Of a stretch of DNA of 64,000 nucleotides, positions 1,143 through 57,528 are shown piece after piece; the first letter of the stretch is position 1; every line of letters starts with the position of its first letter. Under the pieces are notes generated by a model. That model searched no databases and was not told the DNA's origin. It was given only the letters and a program-made list of their open reading frames with translations. Made by a program: the position numbers and the translations under genes. Origin of the DNA: Candidatus Merdicola faecigallinarum (GTDB lineage: Bacteria > Bacillota > Clostridia > TANB77 > CAG-508); NCBI GenBank assembly GCA_018714565.1, contig DVNH01000006.1:1277-65276 (forward strand), in the 5' to 3' direction.

Positions 1143-1721
1143 CTAGATTTTTTTAACTTGTTTTAAAGCAAGTTCAATTGCTTTCATATTACCATCGATT
1201 ACTTCTGGTTTTTTAGCAAATTTATGCTTAAATGAACCTTCCATATCTTTTAAGAATTCATCATCTTCCATAATATGAGCAACTTTAACAATTGCTGCAA
1301 GCATAGGTGTATTTGGAAAATATTTACCTAATGCTTCTAAAGAAATAGAGCGAGCATCAATTGTATAAATTGATCCTTTATAATCTCCTAATACCCTTTT
1401 TAAATATTCTTCGCTCTTTGTTGTATTAATAACAATTGCGCCAGTTTCTTTTAATCCACTTGTTACATTTACAGATTCTAATAAAGTATCATCAACAACT
1501 ACTACATAATCTGGTTCATAGATATTACTATGAATTGTAATTGGTGTTGTGCTAATACGGTTATAGGCAGTAATAGGTGCACCCATACGTTCAGGACCAT
1601 ATTCTGGAAAACCTTGGATGTACTTACCAGTATTAAATGCTGCATCAGCTAATAATAATGAAGCTGTTTTAGCCCCTTGACCACCTCTACCATGCCATCT
1701 GATTTCAATTAAATTATCCAT
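1143..1721 (-). CDS. porG: 2-oxoacid:ferredoxin oxidoreductase gamma subunit
   Basis: 192 aa. The N-terminus IRWHGRGGQGAKTAS is typical of POR/VOR gamma subunits. An SD (GGAGGGAAA) precedes the ATG. Confidence 0.85.
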   Translation of the reverse strand: MDNLIEIRWHGRGGQGAKTASLLLADAAFNTGKYIQGFPEYGPERMGAPITAYNRISTTPITIHSNIYEPDYVVVVDDTLLESVNVTSGLKETGAIVINTTKSEEYLKRVLGDYKGSIYTIDARSISLEALGKYFPNTPMLAAIVKVAHIMEDDEFLKDMEGSFKHKFAKKPEVIDGNMKAIELALKQVKKI

Positions 1722-1840
1722 GATTTAGAATTTCCCTCCTTATTTTGGTAATCATACTAATATACACATCCAGTATATTCTTAAAACAAGTTGATGTCAA
1801 GAAAAATAAAAAGAATAACCGACCGTACGGAACAGTTAAT

Positions 1841-1985
1841 GCAAAGCAATCTGTACATATGGCGAAGCCACTTTTCTTATTACGCAGGAAATTTCGAAAG
1901 AAATTTCTGGAGTAACAAGGTTAAGTTACCTTAGTCTGTGCGATTGCAAAGCAATCTGTACATATGGCGAAGCCACTTTTCTTAT
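1841..1985 (+). repeat. Intergenic repeat family, locus 1: the 3' 40 nt of a unit followed head-to-tail by a full 105-nt unit
   Basis: The 40-mer GCAAAGCAATCTGTACATATGGCGAAGCCACTTTTCTTAT occurs at both 1841-1880 and 1946-1985. The unit at 1881-1985 contains the hairpin GAAATTTC-GAAA-GAAATTTC (1888-1907). The same unit is seen at five other loci. Confidence 0.9.
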
Positions 1986-2075
1986 AATAAATATTGAGAT
2001 ATAATAGGATGTGATCCTATTTGGAAAAAAATTAAGGTAGGATATGATAATAAAAAGTAAAGATAGGAGTAAAAA

Positions 2076-3332
2076 ATGATAGAAAAGATTGCTGAAAAAA
2101 TAAAGAAAAATGGTGGAAACTTATATTTAGTAGGAGGAGCCATTAGAGATGAGTTATTAGGGAAAACACAGTTTGATGAAGATTATTGCATTACAGGGTT
2201 AACACAGGAAAGATTTAAAGAGTTATTTCCGGAAGCAAAATGGATTGGAAAATCTTTTGGGGTATTTCAATTGGAGAAAAAAGAATTTGCTTTAGCAAGA
2301 AGTGAAATAAAAAAAGGGATAGGTCATACAGAGTTTGATGTAATGTTAGATCCTGAAATCTCTATAGAGGAAGATTTAAGAAGAAGAGATATTACAATTA
2401 ATGCAATTGCAAAAGATATGATTACAGGAGAAATCATTGATCCTTTTGGAGGAAGAGAAGATATTGAGAATAAAAAAATAAGATATATTTCGAATCATTT
2501 TTCAGAAGATCCTTTAAGGGTTTATCGAGTAGCAAGGTTTGCTGCAACATTAGAATTTGATGTAGATGAAAGAACCATAAAAATTATGAAAAATATGAAA
2601 CAAGAACTAAAATCGCTATCAAAAGAAAGAGTTTTTTTGGAGCTTCGTAAAGCATTAATAGCAAAAAAACCATCTATCTTTTTTCGCGTTCTAAAAAAAG
2701 CAGAAGTATTAGATGTGCATTTTAAAGAGATATATGATTTAGTAGGAAGTTTGCAACCAGAAAAATATCATCCCGAAGGGGACAGTTATGAACATACAAT
2801 GCAAGTATTAGATAAAGTGGCAGAATATACGGAAGACGAAACTTTAAGATTTGCAGCCCTTGTGCATGACTTGGGGAAAGGAACAACGCCGAAAGAATCT
2901 TATCCACATCATTATGGACATGATAAAAGAGGAGTAGCACTTGTACAAAACTTAGGAGAACGAATAGGACTACCAAGTAAATGGATAAAGTATGGAAAAG
3001 TTGCGGCAAAAGAACATATGCTAGGCGGGATTTTTAGAAAAATGTCACCAGGGAAGCAAGTTAGCTATATCGAAAGAGTTGAAAAAACGGAAATAGGATT
3101 GGAAGGAATGCAACTAATTGTAAATGCAGATCGAGAAGGAAGAGGAAATTACAAAGAAACAGAGGAGGAAAAGAAAAATAGTCAGTTTTTAGAAATCGGA
3201 AAAGAATGTATCCAAACAATAAATGCAAAAAAGATTATAGAAAAATATGGAAAAATAGAAGGAAAACAATTTGGAGAATTATTACATCAAGAAAGAATTG
3301 CATGGTTGAAACAGAAAAACATTGACTTTTAG
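2076..3332 (+). CDS. cca: CCA-adding tRNA nucleotidyltransferase / poly(A) polymerase family protein with C-terminal HD domain
   Basis: 418 aa with the N-terminal LVGGAIRDELLG nucleotidyltransferase motif, RRDITINA, and HD residues (VHDLGK). An SD is present. Confidence 0.8.
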   Translation: MIEKIAEKIKKNGGNLYLVGGAIRDELLGKTQFDEDYCITGLTQERFKELFPEAKWIGKSFGVFQLEKKEFALARSEIKKGIGHTEFDVMLDPEISIEEDLRRRDITINAIAKDMITGEIIDPFGGREDIENKKIRYISNHFSEDPLRVYRVARFAATLEFDVDERTIKIMKNMKQELKSLSKERVFLELRKALIAKKPSIFFRVLKKAEVLDVHFKEIYDLVGSLQPEKYHPEGDSYEHTMQVLDKVAEYTEDETLRFAALVHDLGKGTTPKESYPHHYGHDKRGVALVQNLGERIGLPSKWIKYGKVAAKEHMLGGIFRKMSPGKQVSYIERVEKTEIGLEGMQLIVNADREGRGNYKETEEEKKNSQFLEIGKECIQTINAKKIIEKYGKIEGKQFGELLHQERIAWLKQKNIDF

Positions 3333-3416
3333 AGCTTTTTCGTATATTATAGTAATGTCAAATTTTATGTTTATAGAAAGTTATTTAAAGAAAATAACTT
3401 CAAGGAGGAAGAGTTT

Positions 3417-4211
3417 ATGGGAGAAGTTATCGTAATAACATCGGGGAAAGGTGGAGTAGGAAAAACAACGACAACAGCTAATTTAGGTTCTGCTTTAGCT
3501 TTAGAAGGAAAAAAGGTAGTATTAGTAGATACAGATATAGGGCTTCGTAACTTAGATGTTGTAATGGGACTAGAAAATAGAATTGTATATGACATTGTAG
3601 ATGTTGTAGAAGAAAAATGTAAATTAAGACAAGCTTTGATTAAAGATAAACGTTTTCAAGAACTTTTCTTATTACCAGCCGCTCAAACAAGAGATAAAAG
3701 TGCAATAACAGAAACACAAATGAAAGAACTAGTAAATAAACTAAAAGAAGAATTTGACTATATTTTAATTGATTGTCCAGCAGGAATTGAACAAGGATTT
3801 AAAAATGCAATTGTAGGTGCAGATCGAGCAATTGTTGTTACAATGGCTGAAATTTCAGCCATTCGTGATGCAGATAGAATTATTGGTTTATTGGAATCCT
3901 CACAAATTAAAAATCCACAATTAGTGGTAAATAAATTAAGACCAGAAATGGTTAAAAGAGGAAAAATGATGGATGTTGACGATATTGTTGATTTATTGTC
4001 AATTGATCTTATTGGTGTTGTACCAGATGATGAATATATTATTACACAAACCAATAAAGGAGAACCAGTTATTTCTAATCGAAAAGCTCCTTCTGGAAAA
4101 GCATATATGGAGATCGCAAAGCGAATCCTTGGAGAAAATATAGAAGTAACAATACCAGGTAGAGAGAAAGGTCTTTTTGCTAAGTTTAAAAGATTATTCG
4201 GAAAAAAATAA
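3417..4211 (+). CDS. minD: Septum site-determining ATPase MinD
   Basis: 264 aa with the deviant Walker A motif SGKGGVGKTT. Full-length MinD-like sequence with a C-terminal amphipathic helix (KGLFAKFKRLFG). Confidence 0.95.
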   Translation: MGEVIVITSGKGGVGKTTTTANLGSALALEGKKVVLVDTDIGLRNLDVVMGLENRIVYDIVDVVEEKCKLRQALIKDKRFQELFLLPAAQTRDKSAITETQMKELVNKLKEEFDYILIDCPAGIEQGFKNAIVGADRAIVVTMAEISAIRDADRIIGLLESSQIKNPQLVVNKLRPEMVKRGKMMDVDDIVDLLSIDLIGVVPDDEYIITQTNKGEPVISNRKAPSGKAYMEIAKRILGENIEVTIPGREKGLFAKFKRLFGKK

Positions 4212-24725: not shown

Positions 24726-24773
24726 AAGTTTCTTTAGTATATAGGATTGCGAAACCACGTTTCTTCTAAAGGC

Positions 24774-27077: not shown

Positions 27078-28367
27078 TTATTTCTTTTTTGGTTCTATTT
27101 TTTCAAGACCACCCATATATGGTCTTAGTACCTCTGGAATTGTAATACTACCATCTGGATTATAGTGATTTTCTAGTAAAGCAATTAACATACGAGGTGG
27201 GGCAACTACGGTATTATTTAAGGTATGGGCAAAATAGTTTCCTTTCTCCCCTTTGATGCGAATTCCTAAACGTCTTGCTTGTGCGTCTGTTAAGTTAGAA
27301 CAGCTACCAACTTCAAAATATTTTTGTTGTCTTGGACTCCAAGCTTCTACGTCCACACTTTTGGCTTTTAAATCTGCTAAATCTCCACTACAACATTCCA
27401 AAGTACGAACAGGAATATCCATACTTCTAAATAATTCCACTGTGTAAGACCACATTTTCTCGTACCAATTCCAACTATCTTCAGGTTCACAAACAACAAT
27501 CATTTCTTGTTTTTCAAATTGATGAATTCGGTAAACACCACGTTCTTCGATACCATGAGCACCTTTTTCTTTTCGGAAACAAGGAGAATAAGAAGTCATT
27601 GTATATGGCATGTCCTCTTTTTTTAGAATTTGATCTTTAAACTTTCCAATCATAGAATGTTCACTAGTACCAATTAGATATAGATCTTCTCCTTCAATTT
27701 TATACATCATAGCATCCATTTCTTCAAAACTCATAACTCCAGTTACAACATCTGAACGAATCATGTAAGGAGGGATACAATAAGTAAAACCTTTTTGAAT
27801 CATAAAATCTCTAGCATAAGTTAAAACAGCAGAATGAAGTCTTGCAATATTTCCAGTTAAATAGTAAAAACCATTTCCTGCAACTCTTCTTGCACTGTCT
27901 AAATCAAGACCATCAAGAGATTCCATAATTTCACCATGATAAGGAATTTCATAATCTGGAACAACTGGATCTCCATATTTTTTTACTTCCACATTTTTAC
28001 TATCATCTTCTCCAATAGGAACAGATTCATGCATGATATTAGGTATTTTCATCATACGTATTTTAATTTCATTTGCATATTGCTTTTCTAATTCTTCATT
28101 CTGAATTAATTCTTCATTTAATTTCTGAACTTCTAATTTTTTTTCTTCTGCTTCTTCTTTTTTTCCATCTTTCATAAGCATTCCAATTTCAGAACTTAAT
28201 GTTTTTCTTTTATTTCTTAGTTCATCTCCATGAAGTTGCGCGCTACGATTTTTCTTATCTAGTTCGATCACTTCATCCACTAGAATAAGTTTGTGATCTT
28301 GAAATTTTTTTCGAATGTTTTCTTTTACCATTTCAGGATTTTCTCTTATTAATTTAATATCGATCAT
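27078..28367 (-). CDS. serS: Seryl-tRNA synthetase
   Basis: 429 aa with an N-terminal coiled-coil arm and class II motifs (FRKEKGAHG, GSCSNLTDAQARR). It is preceded by a Ser T-box leader. Confidence 0.95.
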   Translation of the reverse strand: MIDIKLIRENPEMVKENIRKKFQDHKLILVDEVIELDKKNRSAQLHGDELRNKRKTLSSEIGMLMKDGKKEEAEEKKLEVQKLNEELIQNEELEKQYANEIKIRMMKIPNIMHESVPIGEDDSKNVEVKKYGDPVVPDYEIPYHGEIMESLDGLDLDSARRVAGNGFYYLTGNIARLHSAVLTYARDFMIQKGFTYCIPPYMIRSDVVTGVMSFEEMDAMMYKIEGEDLYLIGTSEHSMIGKFKDQILKKEDMPYTMTSYSPCFRKEKGAHGIEERGVYRIHQFEKQEMIVVCEPEDSWNWYEKMWSYTVELFRSMDIPVRTLECCSGDLADLKAKSVDVEAWSPRQQKYFEVGSCSNLTDAQARRLGIRIKGEKGNYFAHTLNNTVVAPPRMLIALLENHYNPDGSITIPEVLRPYMGGLEKIEPKKK

Positions 28368-28397: not shown

Positions 28398-28640
28398 TTC
28401 AAAAAACGCCCTTATATATAAAATATAAGGACGAATGGTCTAAAATCCGCGGTACCACCTTATGTCACAAGTAAAATAACAAGTGCGCTTTAAAAGTAGT
28501 AATAACCAACTACCAACCGGTTTAGTTTTCACTAACAGCTTTAAGAGTAGATTCATACTAATTATTTATTTACTTCCACCAACCGTAAACTCTCTATAAA
28601 AATAATTTAATATTACTAATCTCTTATCGAACGCTTTTTT
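28398..28640 (-). promoter_or_regulatory. T-box riboswitch leader (serine specifier UCU) with terminator/antiterminator
   Basis: The minus strand shows a stem I start (GCGTTCGATAAGAG) and an AGAGAG box. The specifier loop reads GAA-UCU-A (plus-strand 28549-28551). The T-box sequence AAGGTGGTACCGCGG is at plus-strand 28447-28461. The terminator CGTCCTTATAT...ATATAAGGGCG is followed by TTTTTT. Confidence 0.9.
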
Positions 28641-28661: not shown

Positions 28662-28812
28662 CATAAGTAAGAAAAACGCAAGAAAAATCTGATGATTTTT
28701 CCTACGAAAGAAGAAAAGTAGCTTCGCCAAATGTACAGATTGCTTTGCAATCGCACACTTAAGGTGACTTAATCTAGTTACTCCAGAAAAATGATTTTTC
28801 TGGAGTAATAAA
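28662..28812 (-). repeat. Intergenic repeat family, locus 3: a full unit (28711-28812) plus an adjoining shortened unit, reverse orientation
   Basis: The reverse complement of 28711-28812 aligns with the unit at 1881-1985 (…GTGCGATTGCAAAGCAATCTGTACATTTGGCGAAGCTACTTTTCTT). Its hairpin has a different sequence: CTCCAGAAAAAT-G-ATTTTTCTGGAG (28781-28805). A second hairpin, GAAAAATC-TGAT-GATTTTTC, is at 28682-28701. Confidence 0.85.
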
Positions 28813-28934
28813 AAAAGTCGAAAATAGTCGACATAATTGGAAAAATATGCTATAATTATTATGATAAATTTGTTAATCCCCAAGGGGTTTATTTATAGAT
28901 GGCTTACAAACTTTGACATTAAAGGAGGGCAATT

Positions 28935-35325: not shown

Positions 35326-35355
35326 ACTTTTAATGTACAGAAAAAAAATTATCTG

Positions 35356-35468
35356 CTTTTTTATTACGTAGGAAATTTCGAAAGAAATTTCTGGAGCAAC
35401 AAGGTTAAGTTACCTTAAGTGTGTGATTGTAAAGCAATCTGTACATGTGGTGAAGCCACTTTTCTTAT
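35356..35468 (+). repeat. Intergenic repeat family, locus 2: one full unit (35365-35468) preceded by a CTTTTTTAT junction
   Basis: TACGTAGGAAATTTCGAAAGAAATTTCTGGAGCAACAAGGTTAAGTTACCTTAAGTGTGTGATTGTAAAGCAATCTGTACATGTGGTGAAGCCACTTTTCTTAT is near-identical to 1881-1985. Its last bases overlap the stop codon of the convergent ABC gene. Confidence 0.9.
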
Positions 35469-37186
35469 TGAGAAGAAAATTGACTATAATATAAATCATA
35501 ATATTTTTTATGTTGTTTTAATAGAGAATCATGTGTTCCTTCCTCTACGATTTTTCCATTTTCCATTACTAAAATACGGTCCGCATTCCTTATCGTAGAT
35601 AAACGATGAGCAATTACAAGAGAAGTAGAATGGTCCATCAATGAATGAAATGCTTTTTGAATCTTATCTTCTGTAATTAGATCAATATTACTTGTTGCTT
35701 CATCTAAAATTAAGATGGGAGGATGAAGTAGCATGATACGGGCAATATTTATTAGTTGGATTTCACCAGGAGATAACATATCTACATTAGAAATATAGGT
35801 ATCATATCCATTAGGCAATCTTTGAATAAAAGAATCTGCATGTGCTTTTTTTGCTGCTGCTTCCATCTCTTCTTGTGATACGTTTTCTTTTCCATAAGTA
35901 ATATTTTCGCGAATGGTTCCAGTAAAGAGTTTTGTGTCTTGTAATACAAGACCAATATTTTTTCTAAGAAAATCTCTAGGCATATTATGAATAGAAATAC
36001 CATCGATAGAAATTTCGCCTTGTTGAATATCATAAAAACGTAATAATAAGTTAATTAATGTGGTCTTTCCAGATCCTGTTTTTCCAACAATTGCAATTTT
36101 TTCTCCTTTTTGAACAGATAGATTAAGATGAGAAATTAAAGTTTCTTGACCAGGGTAACCAAAGGTAACATCTTTAAATTCAATATATCCATTAAAGGAA
36201 CGAATTGGCAATGATCTTTCTTCATTTTTTTCTTCCGTTTCACCAAGAAAAGTAGCAATACGTTTTGCAGACGCGATAGCAGACTGGATATCGGAAATTA
36301 CAGAAGTGATTTCGTGGAATGGTCTAGTAAATGCAGTAATATACATTAAAAAACTAGAGAGTTCTCCAATTGTAAGTTTGCTAATCATAATTAAATAAAT
36401 ACCTATCATACCGATAGAAAGATAAGACAAATTTGATACAAAACGAATACATGGATTCGTTAAGGATGAGTAAAAATAAGCTTTTAAGCTAACTGTGTGA
36501 AATTTGTGATTAATTTTATCAAAACTTTCTTCGGCGATTGTTTCATAATTAAAAATTTGAAATGTTTTTTGACCAGATAAAATCTGCTCGGTATATCCAT
36601 TTAAAGAAGATAAAATATCTGCTCTTTGTTTAAAGAATTTTTTTGTTTTTTGTGTAATAAATTTAGAAATATAGTACATAATTGGCGCAACAATGACAAA
36701 AAGTAGAGTCATAATGAAATTCATTTTTAGCATAAGAATCAAAGAGAAAAGAATTGTACTAATTCCAGTTGTAATTTTAGAAAAACTTTGTAAAAAACCA
36801 GTAATAAATTGGTCTGTATCTAATGTGAATTGTTGAATAATACTCCCACTTTGGGTTTTATCTAAATAAGAAAGTGGTAAGCGATTTAATTTTTGAAAAA
36901 GATCTGAACGAATTTCCTTTGACATTTTAGCAGAAAAGTTTGTAAGAATATAGTTTAACAGACTGTCTGTAAAAAAGGAAAAAATATAAATACAAACTAA
37001 AATAAGTAAATATGTTAGTAAAGTTTCCCAAGAGCCTTCTAAAATATGATCAATTGTAACTCCAACATAAATAGGAGCAAAAATACGAAGCAAAGAAGAA
37101 ACAAAAGAAAACAAGATAAGAATAATAAGTAAAAATCGTTTTCGAAATAGATATTTCGATAAAAAAGAAATAATATTTGTTTTCAA
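35465..37186 (-). CDS. ABC exporter, fused permease/ATPase half-transporter (subunit with a degenerate signature motif)
   Basis: 573 aa with 6 TM segments plus an NBD. It has Walker A GKTGSGKTT and Walker B ILILDEATS, and the signature reads LSPGEIQ instead of LSGGQ. The TTG start lies 7 nt after AAAGGAGGT. Confidence 0.9.
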   Translation of the reverse strand: MKTNIISFLSKYLFRKRFLLIILILFSFVSSLLRIFAPIYVGVTIDHILEGSWETLLTYLLILVCIYIFSFFTDSLLNYILTNFSAKMSKEIRSDLFQKLNRLPLSYLDKTQSGSIIQQFTLDTDQFITGFLQSFSKITTGISTILFSLILMLKMNFIMTLLFVIVAPIMYYISKFITQKTKKFFKQRADILSSLNGYTEQILSGQKTFQIFNYETIAEESFDKINHKFHTVSLKAYFYSSLTNPCIRFVSNLSYLSIGMIGIYLIMISKLTIGELSSFLMYITAFTRPFHEITSVISDIQSAIASAKRIATFLGETEEKNEERSLPIRSFNGYIEFKDVTFGYPGQETLISHLNLSVQKGEKIAIVGKTGSGKTTLINLLLRFYDIQQGEISIDGISIHNMPRDFLRKNIGLVLQDTKLFTGTIRENITYGKENVSQEEMEAAAKKAHADSFIQRLPNGYDTYISNVDMLSPGEIQLINIARIMLLHPPILILDEATSNIDLITEDKIQKAFHSLMDHSTSLVIAHRLSTIRNADRILVMENGKIVEEGTHDSLLKQHKKYYDLYYSQFSSQ

Positions 37187-46022: not shown

Positions 46023-46050
46023 TTGAAAAATTTTCCTAATATGGTATAAT
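46023..46050 (+). promoter_or_regulatory. Near-consensus sigma-A promoter with an extended -10
   Basis: TTGAAA (46023-46028), a 16-nt spacer, then TGgTATAAT (46042-46050). No coding start follows it for ~600 nt. Confidence 0.7.
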
Positions 46051-46056
46051 AACAAT

Positions 46057-46621
46057 GGTGGTGCATTATTCTAGTCATATTATCTACTATGAGGGTGGGG
46101 CTAAAAATCCACTAAAGGGCACATCGATGAAGTTTCTTGTTTATGCGCGAAATGCCAGTTTTGTGTGTATTCAGGGAGTAAAGAAATTAGGGGAATATAT
46201 AATGGCATATATAGGATCCCTCATTTCGCGGAGACTTAAAAGTAGGACTTTTAAGTATAACCTATGTTGAGTGCCAAGACACAAAATACATAGTGTAGCC
46301 TGTCTTGAGTGATTATATTGGGATTAATTTTTGTGAATTGATTATTTTGGCCAAAATATTTAATTCTTTTGGATTATGAAATTATGATTGCAAAAAAGAC
46401 TAATAGTAGGGTGTAATGTGAAAAGGAAAACTTCTAGAATGTTTGCTTAAACGATAAGCATGGAAGTTTAAGGATTAAGGTACGGATTTAAGTGGCGATC
46501 TGGTGTCTACAATTTTGTAGATGTTCTTTTTAAATGGAAACAGCCAAGCAGTAATGTAGGGTAGAGAATAGAGAAATTCAACCAGACCTAAACCGTAAAA
46601 TTTACTTAAACTTTTACCACC
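46057..46621 (+). ncRNA. Candidate large structured non-coding RNA (~565 nt; OLE-like by size and gene context, unverified)
   Basis: There is no SD-preceded ORF here. The region is GC-richer than its flanks. Hand-found helices: 46091-95/46218-22; 46146-53/46223-30; 46234-43/46247-56 (10 bp); 46275-81/46301-07; 46446-52/46466-72; 46506-11/46516-21. There is also a 16-nt palindrome at 46343-58 and a possible closing pair GGTGGT 46057-62 / ACCACC 46616-21. Confidence 0.5.
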
Positions 46622-46660
46622 TATAAAAATAAAAATGAAGAATATAATCAATAATAGAAT

Positions 46661-47263
46661 ATGAATAAAAGCTTAAGGAGAGAAATAAAATATATGGCAA
46701 AGGGAGAAAAAGAAAAGAAAAAAAGTAATGCAGATGTAAAATGGATTGTATCTGTTTTTATTTCTACTTTTTTACTATCCATTCTTTTTTCATTTATTTC
46801 AACAAATGCAATTTCAAATTTGGGATTAATACCAGCAATTTTAATATTAGTTTTAGTTATTTTAGTAGGAATTGGATTCGATATTGTAGGGGTTGCGGTT
46901 ACGGTAGCAAATGAGCACGAATTTCACGCAAAAGCAACAAAGAAAGTAAAAGGATCAAAAACTTCTATTCAGTTGATTCGTAACTCAGCGAAAGTTGCCA
47001 ATATTTGTGCTGATGTTATTGGAGATATTTGTGGAGTATTAAGTGGTGCAATTTCTGCATTAGTTACAATGAAAATCACAGAAACATTTGGACTAAATTT
47101 TGACTTACAATTTATTATAAGCGCGGTGGTTGCATCTTTAACCGTAAGTGGAAAGGCTTTAGGAAAAGGCGTTGCTCAAAAGAATTCAACTAAAATTGTT
47201 CATGTAGTAGGTGGAGTGCTAAACAAATTCGAACATAACAAAGAAGAAAAATCGAAAAAATAA
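46661..47263 (+). CDS. Small four-TM membrane protein with a basic loop (OapA-like by architecture and position; family not verified)
   Basis: 200 aa, or 189 aa if it starts at the ATG at 46694 after AAGGAG. It has four hydrophobic helices and an internally repeated G.DI.GV motif (GFDIVGVAV / IGDICGVLSGA). The central loop is Lys-rich (HAKATKKVKGSKTS). Confidence 0.7.
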   Translation: MNKSLRREIKYMAKGEKEKKKSNADVKWIVSVFISTFLLSILFSFISTNAISNLGLIPAILILVLVILVGIGFDIVGVAVTVANEHEFHAKATKKVKGSKTSIQLIRNSAKVANICADVIGDICGVLSGAISALVTMKITETFGLNFDLQFIISAVVASLTVSGKALGKGVAQKNSTKIVHVVGGVLNKFEHNKEEKSKK

Positions 47264-49515: not shown

Positions 49516-51984
49516 ATGACATATAAATTTACTAATAGTGCGCAAAAGGTAATTCAAATTGCAAGTGAAATTGCAACAGAACTTGGACATAGTTATATTG
49601 GAACAGAACATATATTATATGGATTAGCAAGAGAAGATAGTGGCGTTGCAAGTAAAGTATTAGAAAAACAAGAGATTACTTGTGAAAATATATTAGAAGA
49701 AATTGAAAGCTTAGTAGGGAGAGATGAACCTGCTATGGATCCAACAGTGGGATTTACACCAAGAACCAAAAGAGTAATTGAAAATGCATTCCGTGAAGCA
49801 AGAAAATTAGGAGTAGAATATATTGGAACAGAACACCTATTAATCGGAATTATGAGAGAAGCAGATAGCATTGCAGTAAGAATTATGCTTGACTTAGGAG
49901 TAAACCCACAAAAATTATATAATGAATTAGTAAAAGTAATTAATGATGAAGAAGAGTTTGGAACGAATACAAGAAGTTCCTCTGAAAAGAACAAAGGAAG
50001 CTATAATTCAACACCAACATTAAATCAGTTTGGAACTGATTTAACGAAACAAGCAGAAGCTGGAAAATTGGACCCAATTATCGGAAGAAAAACAGAAATT
50101 GAAAGGGTAATCCAAATCTTATCAAGAAGAACAAAAAACAATCCTTGTCTAATTGGTGAACCTGGTGTCGGAAAAACTGCAGTAGTAGAAGGGTTAGCAG
50201 AAAAAATCGTGTCAGGAGATGTTCCAGAAGTATTAAAGAATAAAAGAGTCGTAACGGTAGATATCTCAAGTATGGTAGCAGGAGCAAAATATAGAGGAGA
50301 TTTTGAAGAAAGAATTAAAAAATCTTTGAATGAGGTAAAAAAAGCAGGAGATGTAATACTATTTATTGACGAGATTCATACGATTGTAGGAGCAGGATCC
50401 GCAGAAGGGGCAATTGATGCGGCAAATATTTTAAAACCAATGCTAGCAAGAGGAGAAATTCAATTAATTGGTGCAACTACTTTAAATGAATACCGAAAAT
50501 ATATCGAGAAAGATGCTGCTTTAGAAAGACGTTTTAGTACGGTTATGGTGCAAGAGCCAAAAGTAGAAGATACAATTCAAATCTTAACAGGAATTCGTGA
50601 TAAATATGAGGCACATCATAATGTAAAGATTCCAGATGAAACGATCAAAGCTGCAGTAGAATTATCAGTAAGATATATTAATGATCGTTTTTTACCAGAT
50701 AAAGCCATTGATCTAATTGATGAAGCTGCTTCTAAAGTTCGTTTAAAAACATATTCAGAACCAGATGGAATAAAAGAACTACAAGATAAAATAAGAGATA
50801 TAGATCAAGAAAAAGAAGATGCAATTAAGGTTCAAAAATTTGAAAAAGCTGCAAAATTAAGAGATGAAGTAAAGGCTTTAAAAGAAAAATTAGAAAAAGA
50901 AAACGAAAAATGGAATCAGAAAAAATCAAAATCAATTATTACCTTAACAGAAGAAGATATTGCAGAAGTAATTGCTAGTTGGACAGGAATTCCAGTTGCT
51001 AAAATTACACAAGATGAAAATAAAAAACTAAGAGATTTGGAGAAAAACTTACACAAAAGAGTAATTGGACAAAACGAGGCAGTGGAGGCTGTAAGCAAAG
51101 CAATCAGAAGAGGAAGAGTTGGACTAAAAGATCCGAAAAGACCAATTGGTTCTTTCTTATTCTTAGGACCAACAGGAGTAGGTAAAACAGAATTAGCAAA
51201 AGCAATTTCAGAAAGTCTTTTTGGTGATGAAAATGCAATGATACGAGTAGATATGTCGGAATATATGGAATCACATTCCGTATCGAAATTAATAGGGTCG
51301 CCTCCAGGATATGTAGGATTCGATGATGGTGGTCAACTAACAGAAAAAATAAGAAGAAAACCATATGCTGTGATACTATTTGATGAAATTGAAAAAGCAC
51401 ATCCTGATGTAATGAATATGTTATTACAAATTTTGGAAGACGGTAGATTAACAGATAATCAAGGTCGTACCGTTAATTTTAAAAATACAGTAATTATTAT
51501 GACATCTAATGTAGGAGCAAGACTAATTACAGATAAAAATACATTAGGATTTTCAAGCCAAGAAGCAGATAAAAAAGAAGAAGCAGATTATGAAAAAATT
51601 AAAAAAGACGTGATGGCAGAATTGAAGAAACAATTTAGACCTGAATTTCTAAATCGTATTGATGAAATCATCGTATTCCATAAACTAACCGATTCTGAAA
51701 TTGAGCAAATTATTGATATTATGTTAAAAGAAGTAGCAATAAGACTAAAAGCACAAAATATTTCAATTTCTTTTGACAAAAGTGTAAAAGAATTAATTGC
51801 AAAGAAGGGTGTAGACAAAAATTTTGGAGCAAGACCATTAAGAAGATCAATTCAAAATTTAGTAGAAGATAAAATTGCAGAAGAAATTTTAGATGGAAAT
51901 CTAAAAGCAGGGGATGAAGCAAAAGTAACAGCAAAAGAAGATGAAATTTTAATAAAAACCAAAAAACTAGAAGCAAAGGAATAA
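49516..51984 (+). CDS. clpC: ATP-dependent Clp protease ATP-binding subunit ClpC
   Basis: 822 aa with Clp_N repeats, two AAA+ modules (GEPGVGKT, GPTGVGKT) and a UVR linker (FEKAAKLRDE). Confidence 0.96.
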   Translation: MTYKFTNSAQKVIQIASEIATELGHSYIGTEHILYGLAREDSGVASKVLEKQEITCENILEEIESLVGRDEPAMDPTVGFTPRTKRVIENAFREARKLGVEYIGTEHLLIGIMREADSIAVRIMLDLGVNPQKLYNELVKVINDEEEFGTNTRSSSEKNKGSYNSTPTLNQFGTDLTKQAEAGKLDPIIGRKTEIERVIQILSRRTKNNPCLIGEPGVGKTAVVEGLAEKIVSGDVPEVLKNKRVVTVDISSMVAGAKYRGDFEERIKKSLNEVKKAGDVILFIDEIHTIVGAGSAEGAIDAANILKPMLARGEIQLIGATTLNEYRKYIEKDAALERRFSTVMVQEPKVEDTIQILTGIRDKYEAHHNVKIPDETIKAAVELSVRYINDRFLPDKAIDLIDEAASKVRLKTYSEPDGIKELQDKIRDIDQEKEDAIKVQKFEKAAKLRDEVKALKEKLEKENEKWNQKKSKSIITLTEEDIAEVIASWTGIPVAKITQDENKKLRDLEKNLHKRVIGQNEAVEAVSKAIRRGRVGLKDPKRPIGSFLFLGPTGVGKTELAKAISESLFGDENAMIRVDMSEYMESHSVSKLIGSPPGYVGFDDGGQLTEKIRRKPYAVILFDEIEKAHPDVMNMLLQILEDGRLTDNQGRTVNFKNTVIIMTSNVGARLITDKNTLGFSSQEADKKEEADYEKIKKDVMAELKKQFRPEFLNRIDEIIVFHKLTDSEIEQIIDIMLKEVAIRLKAQNISISFDKSVKELIAKKGVDKNFGARPLRRSIQNLVEDKIAEEILDGNLKAGDEAKVTAKEDEILIKTKKLEAKE

Positions 51985-52146
51985 TAAAATGGTAGATAGA
52001 AATTTACAAAAAATTGAAAAAATTATGTAAATATGCTATAATATATATGTTACGAGTTGGCATTGTTGCAAAATGGTTGATATTTGATGTTATTCCTATA
52101 TAAATGATACCAAAAGCAACAGAGTGATAGACAAAGGAGAAAAAAG

Positions 52147-52440
52147 ATGAAAAAAATGGTGAAAGTCGAAAAACAAAAAGATGGTAGATGGGTAGCAGAA
52201 GATGGAACAATCGTAGGACGGGAAATAGAGCTGCAGACTGGAACTATCATTCTTGAAAATGAAGCAGGAGAACAGAAAATGGCGATCTATGGAACGATCA
52301 TCAATGATGTGTTCAATGCTTTTTGTACAGGAAGTTCTTGCGGAGCGCAGTGCGTACTGGCAGGCAAAGGAGCTTGCAGGTATAACCGAAAGATTGCAGA
52401 TGATGCAGGATATTATCTGTTGATGGAGGAAAGTGAATAA
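52147..52440 (+). CDS. Hypothetical 97-aa protein with a C-x4-C-x3-C-x6-C cluster
   Basis: It has a good SD (AAAGGAGAAAAAAG) and its own promoter-like TTGAAA...TATAAT upstream. G+C is visibly higher than in the surroundings. The Cys cluster is FCTGSSCGAQCVLAGKGAC. I recognised no family. Confidence 0.55.
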   Translation: MKKMVKVEKQKDGRWVAEDGTIVGREIELQTGTIILENEAGEQKMAIYGTIINDVFNAFCTGSSCGAQCVLAGKGACRYNRKIADDAGYYLLMEESE

Positions 52441-52490: not shown

Positions 52491-52500
52491 CTATTTTCTG

Positions 52501-52554
52501 TAACAATAAGGTTAAGTTGCCTTAATTTGTGTGATTGCGAAGCACTTTTCATAT
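52501..52554 (+). repeat. Intergenic repeat family, locus 4: an internally deleted unit fused behind a terminator
   Basis: TAACAATAAGGTTAAGTTGCCTTAATTTGTGTGATTGCGAAGCACTTTTCATAT matches the family core, but lacks the ~22 nt between the two GC(A/G)AAGC motifs. Confidence 0.75.
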
Positions 52555-52556
52555 TG

Positions 52557-54654: not shown

Positions 54655-54723
54655 AAAGAAAAAGTGGCTTCACCTAGGAGAAACTAAGGAAATTTAAGTC
54701 TTATTTTTCAGAAAACGCATAAT
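54655..54723 (-). repeat. Intergenic repeat family, locus 5: a short degenerate unit, reverse orientation
   Basis: The plus strand AAGAAAAAGTGGCTTCACC...ACTAAGGAAATTTAAGTCTT...GAAAACGCATAAT matches both ends and the ACTAAGG-AACTTAA core of the reverse-complemented family unit. The central part is missing. Confidence 0.6.
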
Positions 54724-57460: not shown

Positions 57461-57528
57461 GAGGGAAAGAGGGACGGTCATAAAAATCCCTTTTTTTAGG
57501 GATTTTTATGACCGTCCCTCTTTCCCTC
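57461..57528. repeat. 31-bp perfect inverted repeat with a T6 centre
   Basis: GAGGGAAAGAGGGACGGTCATAAAAATCCCT (57461-57491), TTTTTT, then AGGGATTTTTATGACCGTCCCTCTTTCCCTC (57498-57528). It sits between the divergent nfeD and GH18 genes. Confidence 0.95.

Follow-up and report, generated by a model that had tools for sequence, protein, structure and literature searches.

A hairpin-rich intergenic repeat family of uncultured gut Clostridia, found 3' of T-tracts and probably mobile

We analyzed a 64,000-nt stretch of Candidatus Merdicola faecigallinarum (contig DVNH01000006.1, positions 1,277-65,276, forward strand), called here the window, and found that an AT-rich, non-coding unit of ~105-115 nt carrying 4 hairpins in fixed order (H1 to H4) belongs to a repeat family dispersed in the genomes of uncultured gut Clostridia. 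Copies begin immediately 3' of a T-tract, some sites are filled in one genome and empty in another, 2 different subfamilies can stand head-to-tail, and the number of units varies between strains at one locus. We consider it probable that the family is a small, non-coding, non-autonomous, selfish mobile repeat of a clade of uncultured gut Clostridia, resembling a MITE (transposable element of the miniature inverted-repeat type). The family is previously undescribed, and the kind of repeat is already known.

The original prediction, made from the letters of the window alone, had proposed an unnamed dispersed intergenic repeat of REP/BOX/RUP/MITE type. This was borne out, as the family is multi-copy and non-coding, occupies non-orthologous sites in several species and shows presence or absence at orthologous sites; copies exist outside the window, and no described family was matched.

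Results

Copies of the repeat in the window

Copies were recovered in the window by combining repeat finding, blastn and a profile hidden Markov model (HMM; nhmmer). Four loci are solid (c1 to c4), one is a probable degenerate copy (c5) and one a marginal fragment (c6), giving a density of ~1 copy per 11-16 kb. Six copies had been predicted: four of them stand, while the fifth is only probable and the sixth only a possible fragment. The unit sequence quoted for 1881-1985 is identical to the window text, and a 40-nt probe of the unit matched the window only at 1881 (0 mismatches) and 35365 (2 mismatches), with 0 matches expected from 100 shuffles. The copies and their parts are as follows.

1840-1985 (+): locus c1, an array with a 105-nt period, ~1.4 units
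1840-1880 (+): c1, 5'-truncated unit keeping the 3' 41 nt (3' half of H3, H4 and the CTTTTCTTAT end); HMM positions 75-118, E = 5e-12
1881-1985 (+): c1, full unit, following the truncated unit directly
35355-35364 (+): presumed target T-tract GCTTTTTTAT, directly 5' of c2
35365-35468 (+): c2, solo full unit, 91% identical to the c1 unit; E = 2e-28
28711-28812 (-): c3, full unit; nhmmer E = 8e-27, folding z = -8.2
28662-28710 (-): c3, stub or mini-unit of 49 nt, an H1-type hairpin (CGTAGGAAAAATC-ATCA-GATTTTTCTTGCG) joined straight to TTTTTCTTAC
~52494-52556 (+): c4, short-form copy without H1 and with H3 and H4 fused (GATTGC-GAAGCAC); E = 2e-10
54655-54723 (-): c5, probable degenerate short-form copy, found only with c4 as blastn query (E = 0.001, 74% over 58 nt; family HMM E = 0.8)
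24726-24767 (+): c6, marginal, a possible 3' fragment (E = 0.05 by blastn against c4, E = 0.36 by HMM), directly 3' of a terminator hairpin

As predicted, the unit is non-coding and none of the genes called in the window has a transposase Pfam match. The claim that all copies are strictly intergenic holds for nearly all of them; the exception is c2, located between convergent genes, whose last 4 nt overlap the TAA stop of the ABC-transporter gene 35465-37186 (-), the terminal TTA of the unit being the complement of this stop. Its H4 together with the T-tract scored terminator-like. In c3, H1 is a perfect 14-bp helix (TTACTCCAGAAAAA/TTTTTCTGGAGTAA), and on the 5' side of the copy, on its own strand, a small hairpin is followed by the T-tract TTTTTTTAT (28808-28832). 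The c3 stub consists only of H1 and a T-tract and scores as an intrinsic-terminator-like site. Copy c4 comes after the terminator of a 97-aa gene upstream of it and directly adjoins the stop codon of the cation-efflux gene, which is convergent; the copy is also present in locus L066 and in strains L035-L041 (labels of the L001-L070 style denote the fetched loci or stretches that bear the repeat or its neighbouring genes).

The 5' flank follows a strict T-tract rule

We then looked at what lies next to the copies. Among 30 solo copies, each of six positions of the 5' flank is T in 25-30 of them, followed by A (29/30) and then by T (28/30), so that TTTAT closes the flank in 22 copies and TTAT in 26. 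The element's 3' end is likewise constant, reading CTTAT in 25 of the 30. A hairpin of -6 kcal/mol or lower, of unrelated sequence, ends just before the T-tract in 18 of 33 solo copies, compared with 103 of 600 random positions (Fisher p = 3e-6), and in those 18 copies the element starts exactly at the end of the terminator U-tract.

Two copies are found inside tRNA operons, directly 3' of a tRNA, in the orders tRNA-Ser, unit, tRNA-Ser (L011) and tRNA-Asp, unit, tRNA-Phe (L050); in L050, the downstream tRNA begins 3 nt after the unit. The other T-tracts are the complement of an A-rich stretch that precedes a ribosome-binding site (RBS) or follows a TAA stop, and one copy directly adjoins a downstream RBS, leaving no space for a promoter. 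The 3' end of the unit is at most 15 nt from the stop codon of an opposite-strand gene in 14 of 45 copies, and it supplies that stop in several of them, including c2. Copies are enriched between convergent genes (11 of 35 classifiable copies versus 35 of 279 gene pairs of the same DNA, p = 0.006). Their orientation relative to the upstream gene is random (23 same, 18 opposite), and local GC skew, used as a stand-in for replication direction, revealed no replication-strand bias: 12 copies have their sense strand on the G-rich strand and 10 have it on the opposite one (p = 0.83).

Concerning target duplication, TTAT mostly stands on both sides of a copy, and 9 of the 30 solo copies have one end that departs from TTAT, and the other end never carries the same variant, a test that a fixed TTAT duplication would escape. 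As the two ends never co-vary, the terminal TTAT can be assigned to the element.

Filled and empty sites, and tandem arrays

Empty sites were found by an all-against-all comparison of the flanks of the fetched loci, which gave two pairs. In the first, L064 and L052 carry a full unit where L017 is empty, and the terminator hairpin and T-tract are common to all three. In the second, L018 and L045 are collinear over 2.7 kb, and L018 has a copy of the type 2 subfamily (3377-3510; described below) in place of 10 nt of L045, the common flank ending ..TTATTTATTA. The T-tract occurs once in the empty sites. Because the empty site of both pairs already has it, the T-tract is the target and not part of the element. 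An attempt to reach an empty-site alignment through the ABC-transporter gene next to c2 was abandoned because the next homologue is only 59% identical; the window species is isolated in this respect, 59% being the identity of the best non-self homologue of that protein.

Tandem arrangements gave a further view of the process. Locus L009 carries a type 2 unit followed head-to-tail by a type 1 unit, with ..TGCTTTTCTTAT directly followed by TGTATAAG.. at the junction (in short form, CTTTTCTTAT followed by TGTAT). Considering that slippage cannot join two different subfamilies, this tandem needs a second insertion at a target that was kept or recreated. At c1, strains were compared using contigs gathered with four window proteins plus one 99% variant. 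The POR-cca intergenic region measures 354 nt in L001 and L004, 459 nt in L002 and 564 nt in L003, corresponding to 1, 2 and 3 full units; the same 41-nt truncated unit comes first in all array strains, and the units differ by one single-nucleotide polymorphism. L003, a polished long-read contig, carries the array. The arrangement of a 5'-truncated unit followed by a full unit, seen in c1, recurs in L057, L062 and L020.

Two observations concern the sites across species. L019 (4004-5880, compared with window 1143-3332), from BRZ_V_bin74, retains the POR gamma-subunit gene with its promoter (78% nucleotide identity), and the neighbour is a 363-aa gene in place of the 418-aa cca (PolyA_pol/HD domains), with no repeat array. 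The c1 site is thus non-syntenic across species, since BRZ_V_bin74 has a different neighbour and no array there. Separately, 1.3 kb around a repeat copy is 99.7% identical between L010 (6611-7921) and L018 (921-2231), which come from different species (BRZ_HE_bin18 and BRZ_V_bin74), suggesting recent transfer, mis-binning or cross-assembly.

Anatomy and predicted structure of the unit

The anatomy was read from an alignment of 35 non-redundant full-length copies. On the sense strand, the 5' flanking T-tract (TTTTTTAT) is followed by H1, a long A/T-rich hairpin of 16 pairs composed of an outer helix (TTAC/GTAA, TTGC/GCAA or TATAT/ATATA) and an inner helix (GGAAAAATC/GATTTTTCC or GGAAATTTC/GAAATTTCT). 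Then come H2, a weak hairpin of 3-4 bp within AACAAGGTTAAGTTACCT, H3 (GTGCGATTGC-RAA-GCAATC(T)GYAC, 10 bp) and H4 (TGGC-GAA-GCCA, 4 bp), after which the unit ends in CTTTTCTTAT. The end of the unit, H4 plus CTTTTCTTAT, resembles the element's own target, a hairpin and a T-tract ending in TTAT. In c1, the parts are placed as follows.

1880-1895 pairing with 1900-1915 (+): H1
1918-1921 pairing with 1928-1931 (+): H2
1938-1947 pairing with 1951-1961 (+): H3
1965-1968 pairing with 1972-1975 (+): H4
1976-1985 (+): T-rich end CTTTTCTTAT

Standard pairing was found in 91.0% of the alignment cells, compared with 86.7% in column shuffles (0 of 500 reached the observed value) and 32-47% when the partners were slid. 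Both-sided changes occur at 10 pairs, 9 of them in H1, and the covariation score was 0.181 against 0.106 (0 of 500 shuffles). H1 shows abundant compensatory changes, while the invariance of H3 says little because the search patterns partly fixed this hairpin. Single copies out-fold their shuffles on both strands (z from -3.1 to -8.2), and both strands fold about equally well. On the sense strand, G.T cells outnumber A.C cells (75 versus 21); since three columns give most of this excess, the case for a single functional strand is weak.

Results were negative for several other features. The unit has no terminal inverted repeats (match of 6/11 in the window's own copies) and no GTAG or CGTC tag, and a consensus scan for an outward promoter in its 3' end did no better than shuffles, so that this idea was dropped. 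The unit matches no Rfam family: a scan of the whole window at the gathering threshold gave only OLE and T-box RNAs, and neither c1 nor the L009 tandem (type 2 plus type 1) gave anything credible in E-value scans.

Variants and subfamilies

The short copies c4, c5 and c6 share one internal loss (AAAGCAATCTGTACATnTGGC), which fuses H3 and H4 into one short hairpin, and on account of this common loss they form a short-form subfamily. Copies that lack exactly H1 recur (c4, L020a and L042). In the type 2 subfamily, H1 and H2 are kept and H3/H4 are replaced by a different module of 60-70 nt that still ends in ..GCAAAATGCCTTTCTTAT. Examples of type 2 copies are the following.

L007, 3667-3790: type 2 copy
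L009, 5207-5323: type 2 copy
L018, 3377-3510: type 2 copy

In addition, the L008 copy has an insertion in the H1 loop and yet another 3' module. A hand count from the copy listings gave ~7 5'-truncated copies, versus 2 3'-truncated copies and 4 5'-only stubs placed after full units. An asymmetry of 5' truncation was considered as a sign of reverse-transcription-type insertion and rejected, as this tally shows no clear asymmetry.

We also observed near-identical copies with swapped flanks in L051 (1115-1229), L056 (4162-4276) and L068 (14135-14249), where the order is A-unit-B in one assembly, and A-unit-C and D-unit-B in another. Either dispersed copies have recombined with each other, or the assembly became chimeric at the repeat.

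Distribution of the family

The collections were scanned with an exact 22-mer from H3 (scan 1) and with an exact pattern anchored on H2 (scan 2). Exact patterns of this kind force H3 (scan 1), or H2 and the first bases of H3 (scan 2), to look conserved, and the copy counts are lower bounds. Scan 1 matched 15 stretches in 8 species-representative metagenome-assembled genomes (MAGs), all labelled uncultured Clostridia or Clostridium and all from gut samples. Scan 2 matched 33 metagenome stretches; the 6 with a stated source are all from human gut, many of the record names giving no source. Family matches were found at unrelated loci across independent assemblies and species, with E-values down to 1e-35. 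In the assembly ERZ826242, 5 equally covered contigs together hold 8 pattern matches, corresponding to at least 1 copy per 26 kb, and from such densities a genome might hold tens or low hundreds of copies. On the contrary, no copies were found among 72,556 plasmids (PLSDB), 50,697 phage genomes or IMG/VR, so that nothing in these searches points to carriage by plasmids or phages.

Ten contigs end inside the repeat (L005, L012, L019 and L028-L034), seven of which, the Logan contigs L028-L034, end inside c2. Contig breaks of this type are what a multi-copy repeat usually causes when short reads are assembled. The cca protein of the window species (2076-3332) is listed in 63 collection blocks, indicating that the species is common in public assemblies. 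In the literature, four exact sequence strings from the unit occur in no paper of the library searched, and reviews of bacterial MITEs list no Clostridial equivalent.

Neighbouring features in the window and in related strains

A second family of repeats was observed in the window and close to it. Some strains have a Y1_Tnp gene of 257 aa (PF01797, E = 1.3e-10) ~1.6 kb before the window start, which in L001 and L004 is flanked, in inverted orientation, by AGGGACGGTC..AAAATCCCT palindromes.

L001, 5216-5260 and 6513-6565: palindrome AGGGACGGTC..AAAATCCCT
L004, 74-118 and 1371-1417: palindrome AGGGACGGTC..AAAATCCCT

In L003 the same site has an ordinary terminator and no gene, and in L002 it has a 2.9-kb insert with a resolvase fragment. 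The window itself contains, between the NfeD and GH18 genes (57461-57528), a perfect palindrome with 31-nt arms (GAGGGAAAGAGGGACGGTCATAAAAATCCCT and its complement), whose core is AGGGACGGTC..AAAATCCCT. The Y1_Tnp gene and its palindromes look like a RAYT with REP/REPIN-like repeats, a family unrelated to the 105-nt unit.

Upstream of serS (27078-28367), we found a T-box leader (28424-28640, minus strand, 101 bits), and the H1-only stub of c3 lies ~20 nt upstream of this leader. With the stub at such a short distance, sequence derived from the repeat must adjoin the serS promoter or overlap with it; a candidate promoter seen by eye is TTGCGT-17-TAGACT with a TG extension. L026 (10714-10944) has an extra 76-aa DUF1653 open reading frame (ORF) immediately upstream of serS, making the HD_4-serS interval 234 nt longer than in other strains. 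In one strain, L040 (8389-8594, corresponding to window ~51984-52147), the interval from clpC to the 97-aa gene after it is 42 nt longer.

Finally, a full-length OLE (ornate large extremophilic) RNA was found at 46042-46636 (+), scoring 357.6 bits against a gathering score of 50. It is followed by a 200-aa ORF without Pfam match (46661-47263), which by its position could be the membrane protein usually associated with OLE. The presence of OLE in a human-gut Clostridia MAG lineage may itself be of interest.

Discussion

A model of target-mimicking insertion

To account for these data, we propose that a trans-acting enzyme would place the unit, in a single orientation, directly 3' of a T-tract whose last letters are TTTAT or TTAT. 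The usual targets would be an intrinsic terminator's U-tract, the spacer that follows a tRNA, or the complementary strand of a gene end made of TAA and an A-run. As the 3' end of the element (small hairpin plus CTTTTCTTAT) imitates this target, the upstream terminator would stay intact after insertion, and the stop of an antisense gene would be regenerated, a target ATAAA becoming an in-frame ATAAG at the element end, a case followed in detail for c2. Each insertion would also create a fresh target, where more units of the same or of a different subfamily could land head-to-tail, and adjacent units may then vary in number by unequal recombination or slippage, giving the 1, 2 or 3 full units of c1. 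Target mimicry would therefore explain together the intact terminators, the regenerated stops, the accumulation at gene ends and both the homologous and the heterologous tandems. What the data show directly is the family with its anatomy and distribution, the T-tract rule of the 5' flank, the filled and empty orthologous sites, the tandem of two subfamilies and the variation in copy number; from these patterns we infer that the element transposes actively, what sort of enzyme moves it, and that the arrays arose by self-targeting. We think that the element is largely neutral to its host, being at most a weak terminator or insulator.

Several points weigh against a mobile element. No mobilising enzyme or longer autonomous relative was found in ~0.8 Mb (the window plus the fetched loci), where no transposase adjoins any copy; tblastn with the local Y1_Tnp protein against all loci gave only L001 and L004, and the ORFs that follow a 3'-truncated copy in L070 resemble, by translation, an unfamiliar 522-aa protein and a metallo-beta-lactamase-type (RNase J-like) protein. 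Neither terminal inverted repeats nor a co-varying target-site duplication was seen in the unit. The filled and empty pairs cross species at 76-80% identity, their 3' junctions are blurred, and precise deletion is possible. Within the species, c2 to c6 are fixed and of the same size in every strain examined, with no sign of recent transposition, and the present-day variation is array expansion and contraction, which unequal recombination or slippage explains. Moreover, the exact-pattern scans bias the apparent conservation, and the counts from the collections are only lower bounds.

Other explanations of the repeat

The absence of inverted termini and of a co-varying duplication, together with a conserved motif on the 5' side only, would also be expected of an IS200/IS605- or RAYT-type element, moved as single-stranded DNA by a Y1 (HUH) transposase that recognizes subterminal hairpins and inserts 3' of TTAT without duplication. 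Hairpins with compensatory changes near both ends, the excess of G.T over A.C on the sense strand (75 to 21) and the Y1_Tnp gene of some strains of the same species fit this possibility. In the IS200/IS605 family, however, the left-end and right-end (LE and RE) hairpins are usually alike and a bias toward the lagging-strand template is typical, while in the unit H1 is dissimilar to H3/H4 and the bias is absent (12 versus 10, p = 0.83). In addition, three columns produce most of the G.T excess, the palindrome on either side of the Y1_Tnp gene is a different one, and no Y1_Tnp adjoins any copy. We therefore regard a Y1-driven element as unlikely.

Significant structure with covariation in H1 might instead point to a structured RNA with a function, which could be a small RNA in many copies or a 3'-untranslated-region or operon-spacer element. 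Selection on the transcript would then maintain the hairpins, and the dispersal would reflect gene-family duplication. Co-transcription is indeed forced for the copies in tRNA operons and for the one directly before an RBS, and the analogous repeats bcr1 and BOX are transcribed (PMC3184786, PMC3049150). On the contrary, what precedes the unit is an unrelated terminator or T-tract, and copies are found in all contexts, antisense positions between genes among them. Variants with truncations, fusions or swapped modules are frequent, H2 and H4 are weak hairpins, no Rfam family is matched, and one strand folds about as well as the other. With no promoter conserved and with orientation and context unconstrained, an independent small-RNA gene is unlikely, and the RNA explanation as a whole appears quite improbable to us. 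Another possibility is a host-beneficial cassette that would act as terminator or insulator, spread or retained for stopping read-through between convergent genes and ahead of regulated leaders. H4 with its T-tract and the H1-only stub score terminator-like, copies are enriched between convergent genes, the stub is just upstream of the serS T-box leader, and SPRITE was interpreted likewise (PMC3049150). Yet H4 has only 4 bp, and purifying selection on selfish insertions also gives convergent-gene enrichment (PMC3049150). Most copies stand downstream of an existing, intact terminator and would be redundant, and in tRNA operons (3 nt before the next tRNA) or before an RBS an efficient terminator would silence the downstream gene. 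Since most copies follow a terminator and some are in tRNA operons or before an RBS, a general role of this kind is hard to sustain, and we give it very little credence.

The remaining possibility, that the repeat is a local minisatellite or an assembly artefact made of chance low-complexity matches or chimeric joins, could draw on c1, which behaves like a variable-number tandem repeat, and on the swapped flanks of L051, L056 and L068, which could be chimeric assembly. It is refuted by the dispersed loci: the unit is present at dozens of unrelated loci in independent assemblies and species (E down to 1e-35), 0 chance matches were expected, and long contigs carry it, including the polished long-read L003. 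An insertion of selfish units at T-tracts thus remains our preferred explanation.

Comparison with known repeats

Regarding the comparison with REP, BOX, RUP and MITE elements that had been made, the kind of repeat holds, but a strict likeness to REP does not, nor do the inverted termini and target duplications of a classical MITE. The unit shares with MITEs that it is small, non-coding, multi-copy and dispersed, and it fails on inverted repeats and target-site duplication. REP/BIME elements are GC-rich imperfect palindromes of 20-40 nt with a GTAG/CGTC tag, whereas the unit is longer, AT-rich, made of four different hairpins and devoid of such a tag; its copies also do not flank the Y1_Tnp gene of L001 and L004, as would be expected of REP and RAYT. 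The PATE elements of the IS200/IS605 family are similar to the unit in lacking inverted termini, in their hairpin-rich ends, in a one-sided short motif and in the Y1_Tnp of the host species, and differ in that the unit has no replication-strand bias. Bacterial class C group II introns have a single insertion orientation and land just downstream of the stem-loop and T-tract of intrinsic terminators. The resemblance of the unit to them is one of landing place only, as it has no intron domains, no reverse transcriptase and no match to an Rfam intron.

The closest repeats in kind are SPRITE and bcr1, of which the unit is not a member in sequence or architecture; the distinction is drawn from published descriptions of the two. 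SPRITE, found in pneumococcus and S. mitis, is ~105 bp long with an 18-bp duplex, a long U-rich tract and AAAA/TTTT termini, and lies near gene 3' ends, enriched between convergent genes, with no duplication and no partner insertion sequence (IS) (PMC3049150). The unit is like it in length (~105 nt), in being AT-rich and non-coding with a hairpin and a T-rich end, in its placement at gene 3' ends and its enrichment between convergent genes, in having no demonstrable target duplication and no IS partner, and in occupying a narrow clade at perhaps tens of copies per genome. It differs by having four hairpins (the terminal one of 4 bp) instead of one 18-bp duplex, a strict 5' TTTAT rule, alternative 3' modules and whole-unit tandems, and the hosts are streptococci for SPRITE and Clostridia, a different class, for the unit.

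The bcr1 repeat, one of the group A bcr repeats (Okstad 2004; Kristoffersen 2011), is ~155 bp long and confined to the B. cereus group, and insertion is believed to duplicate its TTTAT (PMC6542083, PMC6199540, PMC3184786). Like the unit, it is a Firmicute intergenic repeat with TTTAT at its borders, compensatory changes in stems and many partial copies, whose mobility is inferred from non-conserved locations and whose enzyme is unknown. It differs from the unit in length (~155 versus 105-115 nt) and in host group, and the two ends of the unit do not co-vary. Tandem whole-unit arrays and terminator adjacency, seen for the unit, are absent from the bcr1 descriptions (PMC6542083, PMC6199540, PMC3184786). 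A blastn search of the unit against the 72,556 PLSDB plasmids gave no match, a weak check on bcr1 since the records perhaps do not contain it. Concerning BOX of S. pneumoniae, the likeness lies in a modular, highly structured build with a variable number of internal modules and in the position of some copies next to T-box leaders (PMC3049150, PMC3184786). BOX has boxA/boxC inverted termini and target duplications, both missing from the unit, and repeats boxB only, whereas the unit is repeated whole, head-to-tail, and its variable part is the 3' module.

A more far-reaching idea is that the family stands for a distinct class of mobility, strand-specific, without inverted termini or duplication, and homing to signals made of a hairpin and a T-tract, such as terminators and tRNA ends. 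We find this rather improbable, and nothing observed requires a new kind of mechanism. If it were true, the 3' end would rebuild the signal, making the element harmless to terminators and antisense stops and able to nest into arrays, and the movement would depend on an unrecognised enzyme, or on an RNA or single-stranded intermediate primed at terminator T-tracts.

Significance for gut Clostridia

The repeat has practical consequences for the genomics of these bacteria. It breaks short-read assemblies of these gut Clostridia, as indicated in a small sample by the 10 contigs that end inside it, and it may mediate rearrangements or chimeric joins. Annotators should also avoid taking the hairpins and T-tracts of the unit for independent terminators or small-RNA genes. 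The 105-nt array upstream of cca, with 1, 2 or 3 full units by strain, offers a marker for strain typing.

With respect to the biology of the family, the repeat is a Clostridial addition to the few and little-understood Firmicute repeats that have no inverted termini and no known transposases, such as SPRITE and bcr1. The target rule is cleaner than is usual for such repeats, which together with the mimicking end and the strain-variable arrays makes the family a useful model. Its clean 5' rule, combined with a 3' end that mimics the target, gives a testable handle on how such an element may choose its sites without harm to the host.

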